From: Gamaleyavirus AN24P2
Sequence record: OZ035810.1
DNA length: 64,000 nt
Reading direction: 5' to 3' (one strand)
The notes under the pieces: model-generated
What the model was told of the DNA's origin: nothing
The model's database searches: none
What the model saw: the letters and a program-made list of their open reading frames with translations, nothing else
Shown: positions 5,367 through 58,925 of the stretch, in pieces
How positions within the stretch are numbered: the stretch's first letter is position 1
Layout of the letters: each line of letters begins with the position of its first letter
Position numbers and translations under genes: made by a program

Positions 5367-7670
5367 ATGAATAAGACTTTTACGCAGCCTACTGGCCCAG
5401 TGGCCAAGCAGACTAACAAACAAGCTATAGCTAGATTGCTTGGAATAAAAACAGCACAGGTAGGATATTTAAACACATCTACCCCTACTGAAGCATACTC
5501 TGTGCTATATGATGAAGTTTCACAGTTGCCTTTTTATAGGGGCAATGCTACGGGTACTCCTATTTCGTGGTTATACAATGCTACCCTGAATGTGCTGGAT
5601 ATAACAACTACAGCTGGGTCTTACTCATTAGTGTTGGCTAATAAAGTCATAGAGTTAAAAAATGACTTAGCATCTGAAGATGCAGGTAAAGGGGCTGATA
5701 CAATTAAAGTTCGCAAAGGCAGGGCAAGCGTTACACCCAGTCGCACAGTAGCAGAAATGCTTCTGGATGGTATGGCAGGTTTACGTAAAAACTTCGGAGC
5801 AATCGGTAATGGTATAGCTGATGATACTAACGCTATCAACGATATGTGGGAATGTATGTATGATGCATCCTACAAAAGATTTGGAGCACTTACTGATGAG
5901 GCAGCCATCGGTTTTATGCTTCAAAAAGGTCCAGCCTGCTTGGTTGAAAATGGGGTGTATGTCTACTCTGGTCCTGGTTTAACTTTACCTAGTGGTTCTG
6001 CATTTGTAATGAATATCCATGGTGAAAGCGCTCTTTCATCTAAGTTCCTTATTACCTCAGATGCTTATCTTTTTGATTTGGATAATAACCCAGTACATAG
6101 TTATTTGGGTAAATTAACTATCCATGGGGGAAGAGGGGCTGTACGAATGAAATCCAATGCCCGAACTACGGCGGGTATTCATCTATTTGAGCATCTACGC
6201 TTATCTCGTTTTAGTGAATGTGGTATCAGTAATAACTCCATAGATATGCCATACTTTCGTGTAAGGGATTCAATTTTTTATGGTGGCTTATCTTCCCAGG
6301 CTATCGGTGTTTGCGTATCAGGGTTATCCGCTGGGGGTTATATCAGGGATAACTTATTTTCTGATTTACGTTATGGAATTAAATTAGCTATTGGTCGCCA
6401 AGGTACTAGCGTAGTTAATGGACCGGCTACACCATATAATATTGAAGGTAACGATTTTTATCGTACCGGTAATCGTGGTGCCATAGACCCAGATACGCAA
6501 GAATTTGTTCAGTATGCATCTTATGATGTATGGATTGAACCAGGAGCTACTGCAACCAACTCTGGCCGTGCTATTAGATTTGCAGGCAATAAGTTTGGTC
6601 AGGAATACTTAGTATCCCCAGATTCGCATGTACTTATTGCAGATGCTGCTACCCTGGGTGCTACAGACTCCCTCAATGGGGATAAGGCCCATGTTGAGAC
6701 ACTAAGTACTGGATTTGTATCTGGTTTGCTTTTTGAGGGCAATAACGTTAATTCAGCCAATGGTTCTTATATTGCTCCCTTTATAAGGTCATTCACTCCT
6801 AACGTTGGTAACTGTTATGTTGGTGATTTATATGACAATGATATGCCATCCCGCATTATTGAATACTCACCGTTAGTAACCCAAGCATCGATTACTAATC
6901 TGGCTCGTACTAACATTTTTGCTCCTAAATCTTGTTTGGGTTTGCAAAAGGGTGTAGAGCCTAAGCTAATTTCTAACTTAAATGATGTATTCAAAGTTCT
7001 GGATACTAATAACTGGTACGCCGGGCATCCGCAAGTACCCACCCCATTGGTAGGTGCTCAGCAGTCTAACTTTGTGTCTCTGTATGCGGGACCAACTAGT
7101 GGGTTAACTGTGGCAGATGCTACTAAAACATCTGTTAATAACTCTTACGGAGGTGTATACGAAGCTTCTGAAATAACCCTGGCTTCGGGTGGGCGAGCTT
7201 ATACTGTTGTTTCTGGTATGGTAGCTGGGCAGCAACACTACATTGATTTTGAACTAAAACGCGGAAGCTCTAACCCAGTGCAGAGTGTTAAAGTTGAAAT
7301 TCTCAGCACAGATACTACAGTTCTGTACCTTCGCAGAATAATCCTTATCGATACAATCTCCCGGTGGCAAAGGGTAATATTACCATTTATCCCTTCGGTA
7401 TCTGGTCAAGTAATTGTAAGATTCACTTCTTCCACTTTTATCGAGGGCTCTGCTACTAACTTCATAGTAGGTAATCTTAATGTTTATATAAACAATAACC
7501 CCATCAATACAGGGCACAATGGTGGGTTAGGTGGAACTTGGTCTATTCAGCACACTGTGCGAGGTAATCGCCATGAATGGTATGATGCTTCAGGCAATTT
7601 ACGTGCTAAAGTAGGTGCCCCAACTTCAGCAACTGATGGAGTTATCATTAGTGCTAATCCTGTAATTTGA
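5367..7670 (+). CDS. tailspike protein with pectate-lyase-like beta-helix (putative polysaccharide depolymerase)
   Basis: 767-aa protein; motif NFGAIGNGIADDTNAINDMWE matches the N-terminal signature of pectate-lyase-3-type tailspikes (FGAxGDGxxDDTxAIQ); repetitive beta-rich composition. Confidence 0.6.
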   Translation: MNKTFTQPTGPVAKQTNKQAIARLLGIKTAQVGYLNTSTPTEAYSVLYDEVSQLPFYRGNATGTPISWLYNATLNVLDITTTAGSYSLVLANKVIELKNDLASEDAGKGADTIKVRKGRASVTPSRTVAEMLLDGMAGLRKNFGAIGNGIADDTNAINDMWECMYDASYKRFGALTDEAAIGFMLQKGPACLVENGVYVYSGPGLTLPSGSAFVMNIHGESALSSKFLITSDAYLFDLDNNPVHSYLGKLTIHGGRGAVRMKSNARTTAGIHLFEHLRLSRFSECGISNNSIDMPYFRVRDSIFYGGLSSQAIGVCVSGLSAGGYIRDNLFSDLRYGIKLAIGRQGTSVVNGPATPYNIEGNDFYRTGNRGAIDPDTQEFVQYASYDVWIEPGATATNSGRAIRFAGNKFGQEYLVSPDSHVLIADAATLGATDSLNGDKAHVETLSTGFVSGLLFEGNNVNSANGSYIAPFIRSFTPNVGNCYVGDLYDNDMPSRIIEYSPLVTQASITNLARTNIFAPKSCLGLQKGVEPKLISNLNDVFKVLDTNNWYAGHPQVPTPLVGAQQSNFVSLYAGPTSGLTVADATKTSVNNSYGGVYEASEITLASGGRAYTVVSGMVAGQQHYIDFELKRGSSNPVQSVKVEILSTDTTVLYLRRIILIDTISRWQRVILPFIPSVSGQVIVRFTSSTFIEGSATNFIVGNLNVYINNNPINTGHNGGLGGTWSIQHTVRGNRHEWYDASGNLRAKVGAPTSATDGVIISANPVI

Positions 7671-7677
7671 GGTGATT

Positions 7678-7932
7678 ATGGCTCTAAAATTTACTTTTGA
7701 CTTTAATGGTATTATGGTAACCGATGGGGTACTTACTGTAAGCAAACCCATGATTGATGAGGAATCTGGAACAATTACCTTTGGGCTACTGTTCCAAGCA
7801 ACTAGTGCAGACCCGCTACTGAAATCAGTAACGCTTAGTTGTCCCTATGATCCTTTTGGAGCTGACCCATTCACTCAGGCATACGCCTATATAAAATCCT
7901 TACCAGATTATAAATCTGCCGAGGAAATTTAA
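7678..7932 (+). CDS. small hypothetical protein downstream of tailspike (possible assembly chaperone)
   Basis: ORF-track start 7672 is GTG; ATG at 7678 has a GAGGTG RBS. Followed by a terminator. Confidence 0.35.
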   Translation: MALKFTFDFNGIMVTDGVLTVSKPMIDEESGTITFGLLFQATSADPLLKSVTLSCPYDPFGADPFTQAYAYIKSLPDYKSAEEI

Positions 7933-7958
7933 TAAAAGCCCCTTACGGGGCTTTTCTT
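7933..7958 (+). terminator. rho-independent terminator
   Basis: AAAAGCCCC-TTAC-GGGGCTTTT hairpin followed by CTTCT. Confidence 0.6.
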
Positions 7959-8054
7959 CTACCCCACTCTACTATAAATAAGTATTATCTTTTGGTCAGA
8001 CTCTTCTGATACGTCCCAAATGGGTATCATTAAAGAAACATTAAGGACTTTCTC

Positions 8055-8387
8055 ATGAGCGATGAATCGACTTCGGTTCTTCTTGCCCGATTGGAGGAAA
8101 GACTGGAAACATTATTTAAGAACCAAGAAAAGGAGGAGCGTTCCAAAGATAAACTGGAACAAACTCTATCTGGTTTAAGGGAGTCTGTTCAGCAAATGGA
8201 AGGCAGACTTAAAAACGTAGAGGATAGCCTTGCTAAGTCTGAACCTACTATCGAAGAGTTTATTACCATAAAGCATAAAGTTGCTGGTGCTGGAATTTTT
8301 GGTAAGTGGGTATGGGCTATAGCAGGTGCAATCATTGGTGTATTGGCTGCTGCAAGACGGGAGATATTCGCATGGTTCGCAGGTTAA
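8055..8387 (+). CDS. membrane-anchored coiled-coil protein (first gene of lysis region)
   Basis: 110 aa; N-terminal charged helical region and C-terminal hydrophobic segment WVWAIAGAIIGVLAAA; AAGGA RBS. Confidence 0.4.
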   Translation: MSDESTSVLLARLEERLETLFKNQEKEERSKDKLEQTLSGLRESVQQMEGRLKNVEDSLAKSEPTIEEFITIKHKVAGAGIFGKWVWAIAGAIIGVLAAARREIFAWFAG

Positions 8388-54480: not shown

Positions 54481-54595
54481 ACGAGTACCTGTAATTAAAA
54501 AAGCCCACGGGTTAGGTGGGCTTGGATTAGGAGAAGGATAAGCAATGAGCTGGAAGCAACTTCCAGAAGTACCCTCTTATGGATACTTCGGTTAG

Positions 54596-54874
54596 TTACT
54601 CTGCTTTACTGCCACCATTGGTTTGAACAACAGTTACATTTGTAACCTGGTTCTGACCTTTGTTGGACAGTGACCAAATCAGTGCCACTACCCAGAATAC
54701 CAGTGACCAGCCTAATACGATATTAAGCACACCAATACCCCACTTAGAGGCATGGCCTCGTGCAAAAGCAATGATAGTAGGGATAAGGTACACAGCTAAT
54801 ACAAATAACAGAACAAGGATTGCTGCTAAAGATTCCATGATGGTTCCTATGTGAGGTTGAGTTAGTTTCTTCAC
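54596..54874 (-). CDS. superinfection-immunity-type membrane protein (Imm-like)
   Basis: 92 aa; YLIPTIIAFARGHASKWGIGVLNIVLGWSLVFWVVALIWSL matches the Imm superinfection-immunity family signature. Confidence 0.55.
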   Translation of the reverse strand: MKKLTQPHIGTIMESLAAILVLLFVLAVYLIPTIIAFARGHASKWGIGVLNIVLGWSLVFWVVALIWSLSNKGQNQVTNVTVVQTNGGSKAE

Positions 54875-54911
54875 AAATAGCCCAACTATGCTGGGCTATT
54901 TAGGCAGCTAC

Positions 54912-55115
54912 TTACTCAGAATCTTTGCTTGCAGGAGCAATGGCTTTTTTCAGGTAACCACGTACAGAACGATAGCTTTCTTTTACTGGCACAGTACGAC
55001 CATCAATCAGATGGATTACAGCACCGACCGATGTTTCATCTACGTCTACTACGTTAGATGCAACAATAGTTTTACGCACGGTACTGCCAACAGGAGTTAC
55101 TTGAAATACTGACAT
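54912..55115 (-). CDS. small hypothetical protein
   Basis: 67-aa ORF, minus strand. Confidence 0.3.
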   Translation of the reverse strand: MSVFQVTPVGSTVRKTIVASNVVDVDETSVGAVIHLIDGRTVPVKESYRSVRGYLKKAIAPASKDSE

Positions 55116-55145
55116 GTTGTTTCCTTAATTAAGCCGGATAGCCTT

Positions 55146-55652
55146 TTATTTTGAAGGTCTAGCGGCTACTGGTTTGTTTTCCTGGTCCTGATACTTGCCA
55201 TTGTAATTAGCAGGTTCCTGAACCAGATGAAATAATACTTGAGCTATCCCAGCACCAGCCGGGATATGCAATTTCTTACGACCATGATAGACCAGTTCGA
55301 GAGTAAGATACCCTTTCCATCCTGGTTCTATTACAGTATTGAACACTGATAATGCACGTCTTGCCCAGGTAGACTTATCGTGAACGATAGCTACACAGGA
55401 CGGGGACATGTTGAACTTCTCAATTGCTGAAGCCAAGGCGAACTTACCGAGATGGCGTGATACTTGATTCCCATCAATGACTTTCACCATTGGAATCAAC
55501 CCAAATAAGCGATAGAAGGTAATATCTTGTTTGATACGAATATCGTAACCAGCTTCACCCAATCCATAGCTTACGCCATGCTCTGATACCTTACGGTCTG
55601 GGACATCCAGCAACTGAGATGAACGGTATAGGGAATTACCATTAACAACCAT
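55146..55652 (-). CDS. dCTP deaminase / dUTPase-superfamily protein
   Basis: 168 aa; motifs GYDIRI, VIEPGWKGYLTLEL and C-terminal YNGKYQDQ resemble the dCTP deaminase signatures. Confidence 0.55.
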   Translation of the reverse strand: MVVNGNSLYRSSQLLDVPDRKVSEHGVSYGLGEAGYDIRIKQDITFYRLFGLIPMVKVIDGNQVSRHLGKFALASAIEKFNMSPSCVAIVHDKSTWARRALSVFNTVIEPGWKGYLTLELVYHGRKKLHIPAGAGIAQVLFHLVQEPANYNGKYQDQENKPVAARPSK

Positions 55653-56827
55653 TATTTCATTCCTTTAGGGATATGAACTACCTCCCCAAAAGGTACGGTA
55701 GCATTGGGATTATTCAGAACACACCAGATGACGGGGATATCAAATGGTAATTCTTCCATTGGATGAACATACATATCAGAGAATATGATTGCAGCGGTTG
55801 GCTTATTCTTAATAATCCAATCGCGTACTGGTTCTAGGTTTGTACCACCCCGACCGGTAATCTTAATTTCCTCAAAAGTATCTTCTTCAGTGATGTCTAT
55901 TTCTTCCTGGATAACATCGTCGAAGGTAATTAGGGACATCTTCTTAGGGTTGAATTGGCTCTTAACGTAGGCAACCTCTGAGTTAAAACGCAGAGAGTCT
56001 GCACTACTAATAGAACCAGATACATCTTCAAAGTAAGCCAAGTGTCGTAAACGTCCTTCATCATCTTCCATGGAAGGTAGGTAGATGTCAGTGTAACGAC
56101 GGTTAGGTCTGGCCCACGTATAATGAGTATCGTCGATGTCAGTAAAGAAGTTCATCAGGACTTCTTGCCAAGGAACTACTGGTTTAAGGAATTGGGTAAT
56201 AACCTCTTCCATACGCCCAGCACCTTTACCGGGCATCATTCCACCAGCCATCTTCTGGCTTTGCATCGCACGTACTACGTTGTTGACGACAGCACCCTGG
56301 GACTGCCCCGAAGAGGGGGATTTCATGTCGCCAGCAAGACCTGCTCCAGCACCCCCTGACGGCTTCTGCCTTTTCTGAGGATTCTTCATCAGGTCATCGT
56401 AGATGTCTTCTTCGACCCATCCTTTATATTGGGGGTCTTTGCAAATGCCTTCATTGATACCAGTGAACTTGTAACCATCTTCTTCTAACTGAAGGTTAAT
56501 GAAGTGGTCACATGCCTGGTTCCAGACTTCTGGGTCACGGCTTCCACGACGAATGCCATGCAGATATGCCACATGCCAGAGTTCGTGCATTAACACTGTT
56601 TCTCTGGCATCTGGACACATCCAGATAAAGAAATCTGGATTGAAATGGAGTTCTATCCCATCAGTACATGCAGTGGGGCAATCCTCACGTTTCCATGAGA
56701 ACTTAAGGCTACATAGTAATGAACCAAAGAACGCAGCAGACTTGCCTAGGAAAGCCTGAGCTTGAATACGATCATATTCGCGCATTAGTTGTTCATCACT
56801 AAGGGAGTGCTGAGGAAATTGGTTCAT
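55652..56827 (-). CDS. vWA-domain protein with N-terminal HExxH metallopeptidase-like motif
   Basis: 391 aa; HELWH motif near the N-terminus; MIDAS-like FEDVSGSIS in the C-terminal half; directly downstream of an AAA+ ATPase. Confidence 0.5.
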   Translation of the reverse strand: MNQFPQHSLSDEQLMREYDRIQAQAFLGKSAAFFGSLLCSLKFSWKREDCPTACTDGIELHFNPDFFIWMCPDARETVLMHELWHVAYLHGIRRGSRDPEVWNQACDHFINLQLEEDGYKFTGINEGICKDPQYKGWVEEDIYDDLMKNPQKRQKPSGGAGAGLAGDMKSPSSGQSQGAVVNNVVRAMQSQKMAGGMMPGKGAGRMEEVITQFLKPVVPWQEVLMNFFTDIDDTHYTWARPNRRYTDIYLPSMEDDEGRLRHLAYFEDVSGSISSADSLRFNSEVAYVKSQFNPKKMSLITFDDVIQEEIDITEEDTFEEIKITGRGGTNLEPVRDWIIKNKPTAAIIFSDMYVHPMEELPFDIPVIWCVLNNPNATVPFGEVVHIPKGMK

Positions 56828-56831
56828 TGTT

Positions 56832-57884
56832 TTATCCGTGAATGTAGCGAGAGATGTTAGCAGCAGCCTTACGCCATTCAGGGGTAGCCTGAAGTTCTGG
56901 TAATGCTCTGCCTACTGTACGGAAGTACAGAATCTTATGGGTGAACGTTTTAAAACGCTCAATGTACTGAAGAACATCAGCGAAGTTTTCTTCAGTGGTT
57001 TTGTTAGCCAGATGGTTAACGGTAGCCCAACACAGGTTATTATCTTCCGGTAGTGCACAGCCCAGCGGGTCTTTGACTACTTTCTCAATCGTAATCATAC
57101 GATTATACACCTGTGTAAACTGAACAAACTCTGTAGCCTTACCGGCAGTAACGTGGCCTGCATAGTAGATAGAATCTTCATCTGGCAGAGCACCTTCAGG
57201 ACGGTTCTTGAGGTCTTTGTTAACAAAGTCCCAGGTACGAGGGCAGCAGAACGTTTTGTTCTTATGGGCTGGGTCGAAGTCATGCAGATAACCAGGGTTA
57301 GCATGTAGGAATGCAACCAGACGTTCATCCCATTCTTGAGGAATCATTACGTCTTCAACAAAGATGTCGAAGTTAAGTTCCATTTCGAAGTGGACAACAC
57401 GAGACTGCATTGCAGTACCCAGTGGGTTAACAATTGCACGGTCAGTAGCTTTGTTACCTGCACAGATAATCATCACATTAGGATGAAGTTTTTTCTGACC
57501 AGTCATACGGTCTAGAATCAGTTTGTATGCAGCAGCTATTACTTCTTTGCGAGCAGATGGGAACTCGTCAAGGAATAAGAGCCAGCCATTATACCCTTCT
57601 GGTATTTCATCCCCCTCAATAGGGAATAAGTCAGCGAATGGGATAAACTCTGCACGGTCACCATTACGGAATGGTAAACCAGATAAGTCTTCCGGGGCAG
57701 AAGTAGACAGACGATGGTCTATCAGCTTCATACCAAATTCTTCTGCAACAGAACGAATAATTGCAGATTTACCCATGCCTGGTGATGAAGTCAGGAACGG
57801 TACGTTACCTGCTTGTAGGGCACGAATAATAAAGTTACGGGCCTGACGTGTATTACATACGGTCAGTGAGTCAATGCTCGCCAT
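56832..57884 (-). CDS. AAA+ ATPase (MoxR-like)
   Basis: 350 aa; Walker A TSSPGMGKSA, Walker B LLFLDEF; operonic with the vWA protein. Confidence 0.6.
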   Translation of the reverse strand: MASIDSLTVCNTRQARNFIIRALQAGNVPFLTSSPGMGKSAIIRSVAEEFGMKLIDHRLSTSAPEDLSGLPFRNGDRAEFIPFADLFPIEGDEIPEGYNGWLLFLDEFPSARKEVIAAAYKLILDRMTGQKKLHPNVMIICAGNKATDRAIVNPLGTAMQSRVVHFEMELNFDIFVEDVMIPQEWDERLVAFLHANPGYLHDFDPAHKNKTFCCPRTWDFVNKDLKNRPEGALPDEDSIYYAGHVTAGKATEFVQFTQVYNRMITIEKVVKDPLGCALPEDNNLCWATVNHLANKTTEENFADVLQYIERFKTFTHKILYFRTVGRALPELQATPEWRKAAANISRYIHG

Positions 57885-57918
57885 TTACTTACTCTCCTAA
57901 AGTTAATGGAATTATTAA

Positions 57919-58245
57919 TTAAGATTTAATACATGGGTATGCTGTATCAATCGCCAACAGAACCATGTCTGATGGTACTTTTACTGCATTAACCTTTCGG
58001 TCGTACAGAATAATAGTGGCTACTTTGTCAAAGACATTTCCCAGCTTCATATTATCTGGTACGCAGTTTTTACCTGCTTCTACACCCATAGTAACCATAC
58101 CCATGAAGTAACCCTGGTTCACAAAGTTTGAATTATTAGCTTTGTAGTCAGCAGCAGCTTCCAACAAAGTTGCACGACTGGATGCTTGAGCACCGAATGA
58201 CAAAACTGATAAAGCTACTAGGACAACAGCAATTAAAGTTTTCAT
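57919..58245 (-). CDS. secreted/periplasmic small protein
   Basis: 108 aa; N-terminal signal peptide MKTLIAVVLVALSVLSFGAQA; two Cys in the mature part. Confidence 0.45.
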   Translation of the reverse strand: MKTLIAVVLVALSVLSFGAQASSRATLLEAAADYKANNSNFVNQGYFMGMVTMGVEAGKNCVPDNMKLGNVFDKVATIILYDRKVNAVKVPSDMVLLAIDTAYPCIKS

Positions 58246-58430
58246 TTAGTTACCTTTGATTCGTTGAGTTGAAGTACTCCGGTAGGGGTTAATGACCACC
58301 CAATACCAGTATTGAATTGCACTAAGCCCAGTTTTTTAAGAGACTGTGCGGTTTTGTTATTACGGTTGCTGGTGGCAGAACCACCTTGAACCATACGAAG
58401 GAAGATTGCTTGGGACTGAGTAAGTTTCAA
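58242..58430 (-). CDS. small hypothetical protein
   Basis: 62-aa ORF, start/stop overlapping its neighbours. Confidence 0.3.
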   Translation of the reverse strand: MKLTQSQAIFLRMVQGGSATSNRNNKTAQSLKKLGLVQFNTGIGWSLTPTGVLQLNESKVTK

Positions 58431-58636
58431 AGATAGTATCCTTCCAGGTTTATTGGAGTTACAAATGTACTTGCTGACAGACAGAAAGACTTGCCAGTCT
58501 CTACAGCAACAGCAGCAGGTTTACCATCAGGTAAGGTAACTTTTAGGCATACCGTCTGCATATAAATAAAACCATTGGCAGGTTGTACATCGCCAAAAGT
58601 TACCTCATTGTTTTCAGAACGATTTGTTACTTTCAT
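58427..58636 (-). CDS. small hypothetical protein
   Basis: 69-aa ORF, overlapping start/stop codons. Confidence 0.3.
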   Translation of the reverse strand: MKVTNRSENNEVTFGDVQPANGFIYMQTVCLKVTLPDGKPAAVAVETGKSFCLSASTFVTPINLEGYYL

Positions 58637-58821
58637 TTCTTCTCCGGTACGAACTGCATTACGCAGTTTTGATTACGAGGGATATTCAATTCACATTCAT
58701 GCTTGAGGGTTTGCGTTACAGAATTTGGTGTAGAACCAAAGTAGGTATTAGAAATAGCTACAAATCCTGCACCTATTAAACCACCCAGTAAGAATGAGAA
58801 GAATGCAATCTCTTTATACAT
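58633..58821 (-). CDS. small membrane protein
   Basis: 62 aa with N-terminal TM helix IAFFSFLLGGLIGAGFVAI. Confidence 0.35.
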   Translation of the reverse strand: MYKEIAFFSFLLGGLIGAGFVAISNTYFGSTPNSVTQTLKHECELNIPRNQNCVMQFVPEKK

Positions 58822-58925
58822 TTCCTGGTTCCAGAATGTTTAAGCCAAAAAAAGACCTCCCTTCAATAGGGAGGTCAATAGATATCAAAGGAATGTTATG
58901 GGTTTTATCAACCCAAATAAAGCAA

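Follow-up and report, generated by a model that had tools for sequence, protein, structure and literature searches.

The gp24/gp25 gene pair of Gamaleyavirus AN24P2: a midasin/MoxR-type ATPase and a putative metallopeptidase-vWA partner, possibly directed against a host protein

The current study concerns two adjacent genes in a 64,000-nucleotide stretch of DNA from Gamaleyavirus AN24P2 (sequence record OZ035810.1; the whole stretch is referred to below as the window), a G7C/N4-like schitovirus (Schitoviridae). The genes correspond to gp24 and gp25 of coliphages G7C and N4 and encode an AAA+ ATPase and a protein in which a putative zincin-type metallopeptidase domain precedes a vWA domain with a complete predicted metal ion-dependent adhesion site (MIDAS). 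We tentatively favor the reading that the two proteins constitute an ATP-driven, MIDAS-targeted machine that remodels or cleaves a host protein, probably one with an immune function. The two genes remain paired across four phage lineages as well as several plasmid groups, the catalytic and metal-binding residues are invariant among highly diverged homologues, and the sole experimental phenotype found for the family, that of its homologues in Vequintavirus Bas54, relates to a bacterial defense system.

Results

An operonic gene pair already catalogued in N4-like phages

The locus was singled out by an earlier sequence-only reading, which described an operonic Walker A/B ATPase together with a vWA/MIDAS protein. 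That description holds at the level of both the genes and their motifs, the latter being invariant in 37 homologues of each protein. The two minus-strand open reading frames (ORFs; coordinates are listed in Table 1) are separated by 4 nt between the gp24 stop codon and the gp25 ATG, the gp25 stop codon and the ATG of the downstream dCTP deaminase gene overlap (TAATG), and minus-strand terminator-like hairpins, detected by consensus scan only, flank the gene unit at 58876-58854 and 54523-54501. Given the short gap, the overlapping stop and start codons and the bracketing hairpins, the operonic pairing is therefore real. A strong AGGAG ribosome-binding site precedes gp24. In the G7C record, the stem-loop upstream of the cluster agrees with that of the window, while a second one is located before imm rather than after it.

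Window DNA is 91-95% identical to that of G7C-like coliphages, with the gp24/gp25 region sharing 91-92% identity with G7C. The G7C RefSeq record lists the orthologues as gp24 ("ATPase") and gp25 ("VWA-like domain-containing protein"), both noted as similar to gp24/gp25 of coliphage N4, and the N4 and G7C genes share the gene order and the protein lengths of 350 and 391 aa. Nothing of substance distinguishes the pairs; G7C has an HNH homing endonuclease gene, gp24.1, inserted between the two (7670-8146 of the retrieved locus), which is also found in several relatives and is missing from the window. In phage U1G (NC_070872.1), the ATPase is annotated as two pieces with HNH genes around them.

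Both genes have a considerable history in the literature. The set of 14 core genes defined for N4-like phages includes both, under the entries "unknown" and "vWFA domain" (PMC4193335), they belong to the middle class of transcripts in N4 (PMC4193335; PMC2784036), and neither product corresponds to a virion protein identified by mass spectrometry in N4-like roseophages (PMC4193335). In 2021, a MoxR AAA+/metallopeptidase-vWA architecture was described for jumbo phages of group 2.2 by Iyer et al. (Viruses 13:63; PMC7824862), whose text on this architecture proposes that such a pair takes part in virion assembly, with proteolytic processing, and cites the MoxR-vWA pair of the archaeal virus ATV. 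The novelty implied by the sequence-only reading is unsupported, because the pair is annotated in public records, has figured in the N4 literature since 2009, is covered by two Pfam families and has a published phage architecture; the observation is a correct re-discovery. Our literature searches found no experimental study of N4 gp24/gp25 and no functional study of DUF2201, PF13203, PF09967 or COG3864, and the main text of the CRISPRi-ART paper contains no N4 gp24/gp25 data.

The ATPase groups with midasin and dynein

The ATPase was aligned with 37 homologues at 51-87% identity and with a second set of 14 distant homologues. Across the distant set, E107 of Walker B is the sole core AAA+ residue that is not invariant. 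The Walker A and Walker B motifs occur in the contexts SSPGMGKS (residues 33-40) and LLFLDE (residues 102-107), and N144, R162 and R216, all invariant in both sets, are the putative sensor-1, arginine finger and sensor-2 residues as judged from AAA+ topology. The predicted fold comprises an AAA+ alpha/beta core and a helical lid, and residues ~180-350 form a helical extension (~170 residues) that is conserved within the protein's own family only, plasmid homologues included. The P64-P71 motif corresponds in the alignment to the segment "LSdstDPxxLxG" in the AAA domains of midasin and is overlapped by a loop of low model confidence (residues 69-82).

In structure and profile comparisons, the nearest relatives are midasin, the dynein AAA domains, CbbQ and NorQ, with CbbQ and NorQ being the closest among small ATPases of solved structure. 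A profile built from 14 diverse members of the family matches midasin at E = 1.8e-17, followed by the NtrC-type family at 1e-4, and a single-sequence search of the PDB with gp24 yields a weak midasin match only. PHROG 1297 ("ATPase") matches the window protein at 2e-133, and Pfam recognizes generic AAA only (1.2e-5, 26.2 bits against a cut-off of 21.2), with no match to either AAA_5 (PF07728) or AAA_3 (PF07726, MoxR proper) at E <= 0.01. AAA_3 likewise remains below cut-off in the homologues scanned, while the AAA_5 model is passed by the homologue from jumbo phage PAC2 (24.0 bits against 22) and narrowly missed by that from Burkholderia (21.3 bits). Since the ATPase passes generic AAA and neither AAA_3 nor AAA_5, the earlier designation "MoxR-like" holds at the level of the clade (dynein/midasin/CbbQ/NorQ, the AAA_5 group), and not as demonstrated membership in MoxR proper.

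gp25 combines a zincin-like domain with a MIDAS

For gp25, the alignments comprised 37 N4-like homologues and a broader set of 15 sequences that share 22-62% identity with the window protein and extend to proteins of jumbo phages, a vequintavirus and plasmids. Pfam places DUF2201_N ("putative metallopeptidase domain") on residues 17-253 (7.2e-57, 193.5 bits, cut-off 23.2) and DUF2201 ("VWA-like domain") on residues 263-386 (1.3e-33, 116.1 bits, cut-off 26.4), both above the gathering score, which together constitute the COG3864-type "predicted metal-dependent peptidase" architecture. In the AlphaFold2 model (predicted local distance difference test score, pLDDT, 80), the N-terminal domain presents a three-stranded sheet (strands 42-45, 53-55 and 59-62) and then helices 72-87 and 99-116.

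The N-terminal HELWH sequence that had been reported as a zinc-peptidase-like motif is indeed present at residues 81-85, and its H81, E82 and H85 are invariant in both alignments, down to 22% identity. We checked whether it might fall within a region predicted to be non-catalytic; instead, it lies in helix 72-87, after the sheet and within the putative metallopeptidase domain. The composition of gp25 gives a chance expectation of ~0.02 for HExxH, and the motif is not a chance occurrence because it is located inside so strong a DUF2201_N match. Over the HExxH stretch, the profile of the 15 sequences weakly matches the M48 peptidase 3c37 (0.0068), selecase MJ1213 (0.0087) and HtpX (0.05), as well as Ste24 and BepA; a single-sequence PDB search with gp25 found nothing. 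Taken at face value, these features suggest that the N-terminal domain is a zincin-type metallopeptidase with its catalytic Glu preserved. On helix 99-116, residues N103, A105, D107 and N111 of an N-x-A-x-D-x-x-x-N motif are invariant in both alignments, and D107 is a candidate third metal ligand. In comparison with the M48/HtpX/selecase minigluzincins, to which the weak profile match lies at the active-site helix, the third ligand of gp25 would apparently be this Asp. Inteins (Pfam Vint/Intein_splicing) occur in two metagenomic N4-like gp25 homologues, P0244 and P0252, and are inserted exactly between A105 and C106 (WNDA/CISGE...VVHN/CDYVINN, with slashes at the junctions), beside the presumed third zinc ligand; insertion points of inteins are usually catalytic motifs of important proteins.

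The linker between the two domains is conserved at W238, Y249 and P251 in addition to its arginine-rich motif, and pLDDT falls below 50 for residues 235-252. In the C-terminal domain, the five residues of the predicted MIDAS (DxSxS ... T ... D), namely D268, S270, S272, T329 and D351, are invariant in both the 37 N4-like and the 15 diverse sequences. The 15-sequence profile matches integrin I domains at 5e-6, with DxSxS aligned to the integrin MIDAS, and the domain also matches NorD and BchD.

Public databases frequently describe gp25 as an "HNH endonuclease," a label that derives from phrog_1314 and has been copied into many GenBank records. This label is the only argument for such a function, which is refuted by domain analysis: the Pfam scan contains no HNH domain, DUF2201_N and DUF2201 cover the whole length of the protein, its fold is a vWA plus a helical zincin-like domain, and the true HNH homing endonucleases are separate genes beside gp25 in G7C and its relatives. 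We take it for a likely annotation error, of which these adjacent endonucleases may have been the origin. In Klebsiella phage K57alpha1.2 (OY979416.1), the gp25 region is annotated as "virion RNA polymerase," which looks wrong.

Homologues in Bas54 and the defense system DS-28

In Vequintavirus Bas54 (Escherichia phage MaxBurger, MZ501093.1), bas54_0063 ("MoxR ATPase") is retrieved by tblastn with the window ATPase and is 26% identical to gp24 (BLASTP, E 1e-20) and bas54_0055 ("putative metallopeptidase") is 22% identical to gp25 over its full length (E 4e-20); the near-identical bas54_0055 orthologue of phage JES2013 carries both DUF2201_N and DUF2201. According to the HIDEN-SEQ preprint, bas54_0063 is one of two genes required to overcome DS-28, a predicted two-gene defense system of the E. 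coli clinical isolate CFE311, and a knockout of the Bas54 ATPase is specifically sensitive to cloned DS-28 (10.1101/2025.11.20.689424). In Extended Data Table 8 of that preprint, insertions on K-12 occupy 60/64 TA sites of bas54_0063 and 81/86 of bas54_0055, and both genes are classified as Non-essential, whereas the comparison of CFE311 with BW25113 gives log2 fold changes of -7.23 (q 0) for the ATPase and -2.20 (q 0.009) for the metallopeptidase-vWA gene. The second gene validated against DS-28, bas54_0140, encodes an unrelated 99-aa protein, and its corresponding values are 24/24, Non-essential, and -5.48 (q 0). The preprint highlights bas54_0063 and bas54_0140 only and does not comment upon bas54_0055 (10.1101/2025.11.20.689424); linking the depletion of bas54_0055 in CFE311 to the ATPase phenotype is our own reading of its table. 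We found no description of the composition of DS-28 in the literature.

The sequence-only reading had named dispensability without a phenotype as evidence against a role in host takeover. In Bas54, the first half of this is observed on K-12, where both genes are dispensable, but a phenotype appears on the clinical host. The evidence is consistent with the suggestion that, during takeover, the pair remodels or cleaves a target of host or phage origin, and the need for the Bas54 ATPase against DS-28 may be regarded as indirect support for it by analogy.

A mobile two-gene module

A tblastn search of phage records identified 823 with relatives of the ATPase and 689 with relatives of gp25, in the same lineages. 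Relatives of both are found in Schitoviridae, Vequintavirinae, the Alcyoneusvirus and Wroclawvirus jumbo phages, and Campylobacter phages. In jumbo phage K64-1, the ATPase gene (28% identity) is immediately upstream of the DUF2201 gene, whereas in PAC2 (34% identity) it is ~3 kb upstream with a homing endonuclease in between, and a distance of 8 genes separates the pair in the vequintaviruses, Bas54 among them. The ATPase of the vequintavirus JES2013 is ORF4; ORF11, which is located beside the DUF2201 gene, was considered and rejected as the ATPase.

Relatives of gp25 are also present on 95 plasmids. Megaplasmids of Burkholderia and Cupriavidus carry the order ATPase, conserved ~300-aa protein, vWA, with the Burkholderia ATPase 28% identical to gp24 over its full length. 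The middle protein is 56% identical between the B. pseudomallei plasmid NZ_CP009155.1 and C. necator pBB2, and the Burkholderia copy has no Pfam match; it is unrelated to the gene beside the Bas54 peptidase, and a conserved third component was accordingly rejected. On NZ_CP009155.1, the trio is directly upstream of the virB11/B2/B3/B4 type IV secretion/conjugation genes, and a PRTRC cassette is found ~20 kb upstream of the trio. In Synechocystis pSYSA, a "MoxR family ATPase" adjoins a "VWA-like domain-containing protein." An "AAA family ATPase" near a DUF2201 gene on a Rhodococcus plasmid shares only 13% identity, is not a gp24 homologue and was removed from the profile. From this distribution among phages and plasmids, it is evident that the pair is a mobile module of two genes carried by virulent phages as well as plasmids, and is not peculiar to AN24P2. 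An exhaustive profile search with the gp25 family (clusters at 50% identity) yielded 21,936 representatives at E <= 1e-3 and 5,497 at 1e-30.

Among N4-like genomes, the string of ATPase, vWA, dCTP deaminase and ThyX genes is conserved down to 45% identity. Similar strings were encountered on two bacterial contigs at 45-51% identity: Mesorhizobium yinganensis contig2 (727 kb, 434947-448110; ATPase, vWA-peptidase, dCTP deaminase, ..., thymidylate synthase) and a contig of a Roseococcus metagenome-assembled genome (MAG; 297 kb). N4-like phages are regarded as strictly virulent, and these strings represent N4-like elements that have integrated or else chimeras created during assembly. The Acinetobacter baumannii "plasmid" pRBH2-3 (NZ_CP110465.1, 75 kb) encodes a phage-type RNA polymerase, ATPase, HNH endonuclease and vWA-peptidase in N4-like order and has the size of a schitovirus genome; the record probably represents a phage, or a phage-plasmid, filed as a plasmid. 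Similarly, JANQNF010000027.1 (69 kb, "MAG: archaeon") is probably a misbinned G7C-like coliphage, since its gp25 is 78% identical to that of the window. Overall, the scan of bacterial and archaeal contigs returned mostly N4-like contigs, some of them in bacterial or archaeal bins, and not independent bacterial contexts.

Features and neighbors of the pair in the window

Upstream of gp24, the first neighbor encodes a 108-aa protein with an N-terminal signal-like segment. It matches Rap1a/Tai4 (type VI secretion amidase immunity) below the Pfam cut-off (E 0.0012), and its relatives carry the annotation "Tai4"; a type VI secretion immunity-like protein would be unusual in a phage. At the downstream end of the unit, a 92-aa membrane protein matches Pfam Imm_superinfect at 7e-17 and the PHROG category "immunity to superinfection." The rIIA/rIIB genes are located ~4 kb downstream, and the head-decoration gene gp17 is ~1.5 kb upstream in the same orientation.

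Table 1. Features of the gp24/gp25 locus in the window
Feature	Position	Strand	Remarks
gp24-like AAA+ ATPase, predicted midasin/dynein/MoxR (AAA_5-type) clade	56832..57884	-	350 aa
Walker A / P-loop G36-M-G-K-S40	57765..57779	-	G38, K39, S40 invariant in 37 + 14 homologues
P64-E-D-L-S-G-L-P71, helix-2 insert region	57672..57695	-	P64, D66, G69, P71 invariant from schitoviruses to plasmid homologues
Walker B D106-E107	57564..57569	-	both invariant in 37 homologues; D106 also in 14 distant
Sensor-1 N144 (57453-57455), putative arginine finger R162 (57399-57401), putative sensor-2 R216 in PRTW (57237-57239)	57237..57455	-	
gp25-like protein: N-terminal zincin-like domain, linker, C-terminal vWA/MIDAS	55652..56827	-	391 aa; Pfam, AlphaFold2 model, G7C/N4 gp25 orthology
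DUF2201_N putative metallopeptidase region, residues 1-253 including linker	56069..56827	-	Pfam residues 17-253
H81-E-L-W-H85, predicted zinc-binding/catalytic motif	56573..56587	-	H81, E82, H85 invariant
A105-C-D107 of N103-x-A-x-D-x-x-x-N111	56507..56515	-	N103, A105, D107, N111 invariant
R240-P-N-R-R-Y245 linker motif	56093..56110	-	R243, R244 invariant in 37, nearly so in 15-sequence set
vWA fold domain, residues 263-386	55670..56041	-	Rossmann-like vWA fold
Predicted MIDAS D268-V-S-G-S272, with T329 (55841-55843) and D351 (55775-55777)	56012..56026	-	five residues invariant
Likely transcription unit	54501..58876	-	terminator-like hairpins at both ends (consensus scan); ORF and family scans
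Unit content: three small ORFs, Tai4/Rap1a-like ORF (57919-58245), gp24, gp25		-	ORF list, family scans
Unit content, downstream part: dCTP deaminase (55146-55652), gp27 (54912-55115), Imm (54596-54874)		-	

Discussion

Based upon the features of the two proteins, a working model can be proposed. gp24, as a midasin/MoxR-type AAA+ ATPase, would presumably assemble into a hexameric ring, with gp25 serving as its dedicated partner in a complex. If integrin I domains, midasin-Rsa4, CbbO-Rubisco and NorD are taken as analogues, a divalent cation bound at the gp25 MIDAS would allow it to grip an acidic side chain on a specific target. The MIDAS would thus select the target, the ATPase would pull or reshape either the target or gp25 itself, and the zincin site would then cut. 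Such a machine would be FtsH-like, except that its motor and its protease would reside on separate chains. Its role would be non-structural and most probably host-directed, with the neutralization of a host protein, likely a component of an anti-phage defense, during the middle phase of infection.

Several known systems share portions of this design. FtsH and other AAA+ zinc proteases resemble gp24/gp25 by analogy in combining an AAA+ motor with an HExxH zincin, but gp24/gp25 have the two on different chains, have no membrane anchors and employ an ATPase from a different AAA+ clade. Midasin (Rea1/Mdn1) is the best sequence relative among solved structures, including the "P-x-D-L-x-G" segment of the helix-2 insert, and its AAA_5-type modules are coupled to a MIDAS domain by which an acidic residue on substrates is held. 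However, midasin is a single eukaryotic polypeptide of 5,000 residues with six fused AAA modules and no peptidase, whereas each gp24 chain has a single AAA module and a separate protein carries the MIDAS. NorQ/NorD, CbbQ/CbbO, RavA/ViaA and BchI/BchD are likewise systems of a MoxR-type ATPase and a vWA cofactor, to which gp24 adds its family-specific helical C-terminal extension. The pair from jumbo phages of group 2.2, as it is presented in the text of Iyer et al. concerning this architecture (PMC7824862), has the same two-protein organization, with the homologues from K64-1 and PAC2 being distant (24-34% identity); N4-like phages are not mentioned in that text. In Bas54, the homologues differ in that their genes are on opposite strands and their products are larger (394 and 486 aa).

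A host-directed, conditional function is supported by several observations: 1) the Bas54 phenotype is both strain-specific and DS-28-specific, 2) Imm and the Tai4-like protein are encoded in the same unit and rIIA/rIIB are nearby in the window as well as in Bas54, where the ATPase gene is two genes upstream of them, and 3) the elements carrying the module have to become established in hosts that are equipped with defenses. That neither protein was found in the virions of N4-like roseophages is in agreement as well.

Other considerations weigh against this reading. Counter-defense genes are usually variable accessory genes, whereas gp24/gp25 are core in all N4-like phages, a status that points toward something more basic. 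With only 26% and 22% identity between the Bas54 proteins and those of the window, the function may not transfer; a tblastn search for bas54_0140 found no homologue in the window (best E 0.31); and the depletion of bas54_0055 is much weaker than that of the ATPase, the latter being the one of the two homologues covered by the DS-28 assay. No solved structure matched the gp25 N-terminal domain, such that the zincin assignment derives from Pfam and the weak profile matches, and neither PADLOC nor NCBIfam has a match for gp24 or gp25. Moreover, peptidase activity, a complex and a substrate are predictions for every member of the family. A more detailed version of the model, in which a split FtsH-like protease present in every schitovirus, in vequintaviruses, in several jumbo phages and in conjugative megaplasmids uses its MIDAS to read an acidic residue on a host immune protein, such as a component of DS-28, and then destroys or dismantles this protein, is conceivable and, in our estimation, less likely than not.

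Among the alternatives, roles in virion assembly and in enzyme activation can both be envisioned, and both are weaker. The former would cast the pair as a chaperone with proteolytic processing that folds, assembles or trims structural proteins, such as the giant virion RNA polymerase, the tail or the appendages. This is what the relevant text of Iyer et al. proposes for the same architecture, with ATV MoxR-vWA as a precedent shown for tail development (PMC7824862). The core status of the genes, their near restriction among phages to those with large genomes and complex virions, and the proximity of gp17 would all fit. Even so, neither the Bas54 data nor the plasmid homologues favor this proposal, and we consider it unlikely. 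The Bas54 orthologues tolerate insertions at >93% of their TA sites and the phage still forms plaques on K-12, meaning that virions are assembled there without either gene. Plasmids make no virions, and the homologous pairs they carry therefore rule out a role confined to virion building. The genes are also of the middle class in N4, among those for nucleotide metabolism and superinfection rather than in the late structural module, and both proteins are absent from the roseophage virion proteins mentioned above.

An enzyme-activation or cofactor-insertion chaperone of the NorQ/NorD, CbbQ/CbbO, CoxD/CoxE or CobS/CobT type, acting upon dCTP deaminase, ThyX or a host enzyme, is less probable still. 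It would account for CbbQ and NorQ being the closest small solved ATPases and for the vWA matches to NorD and BchD, as well as for the gene string with dCTP deaminase and ThyX that persists down to 45% identity (M. yinganensis contig2) and for a thymidylate synthase ~2 kb from the pair in K64-1. However, the HExxH motif is invariant across the family together with its catalytic Glu; to our knowledge, neither NorQ/NorD- and CbbQ/CbbO-type systems nor the NorD/CbbO/ViaA/BchD-type adaptors contain a peptidase domain, and such adaptors mature or reactivate enzymes instead of cleaving targets. We also know of no requirement of dCTP deaminase or the flavin-dependent ThyX for metal-cluster insertion, which counts against this explanation. 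Neither gene is found beside the pair in Bas54 or in the plasmid contexts, there is no constant enzyme neighbor outside the schitoviruses, and the Bas54 phenotype is specific to a host strain and not metabolic.

A role linked to DNA replication or recombination, e.g. the stripping of tightly bound or cross-linked proteins in the manner of SprT/Wss1-type zincin proteases, seems slightly more remote again. The position of the genes in the middle class among those of DNA metabolism would suit it, as would the conjugative plasmids on which the pair is directly upstream of type IV secretion genes. The gp24/gp25 genes are also targets of inteins and homing endonucleases, which are typical of replication genes. 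Conversely, the Pfam scan contains no DNA-binding domain, the profile matches are to M48/HtpX-type zincins and not to SprT/Wss1, and the genes are dispensable on K-12 in Bas54. An HNH endonuclease activity of gp25 can be dismissed on the grounds given above as next to impossible. The share of probability left by all of these explanations belongs to other or unknown functions.

Returning to the favored host-directed remodeling or cleavage machine, its implications would extend well beyond AN24P2. gp24 and gp25 are two genes common to all N4-like phages that have been without an assigned function since their first annotation, and they are relevant to phage-therapy candidates of the G7C/N4 type. 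As a result of the Bas54/DS-28 finding, a direct test is possible in N4, a tractable model phage. If the reading is true, gp24/gp25 would represent a rare proteolytic mechanism of counter-defense, which would explain the spread of the module among virulent phages and plasmids, and mobile elements would possess a widespread enzymatic anti-defense strategy based upon protein degradation.

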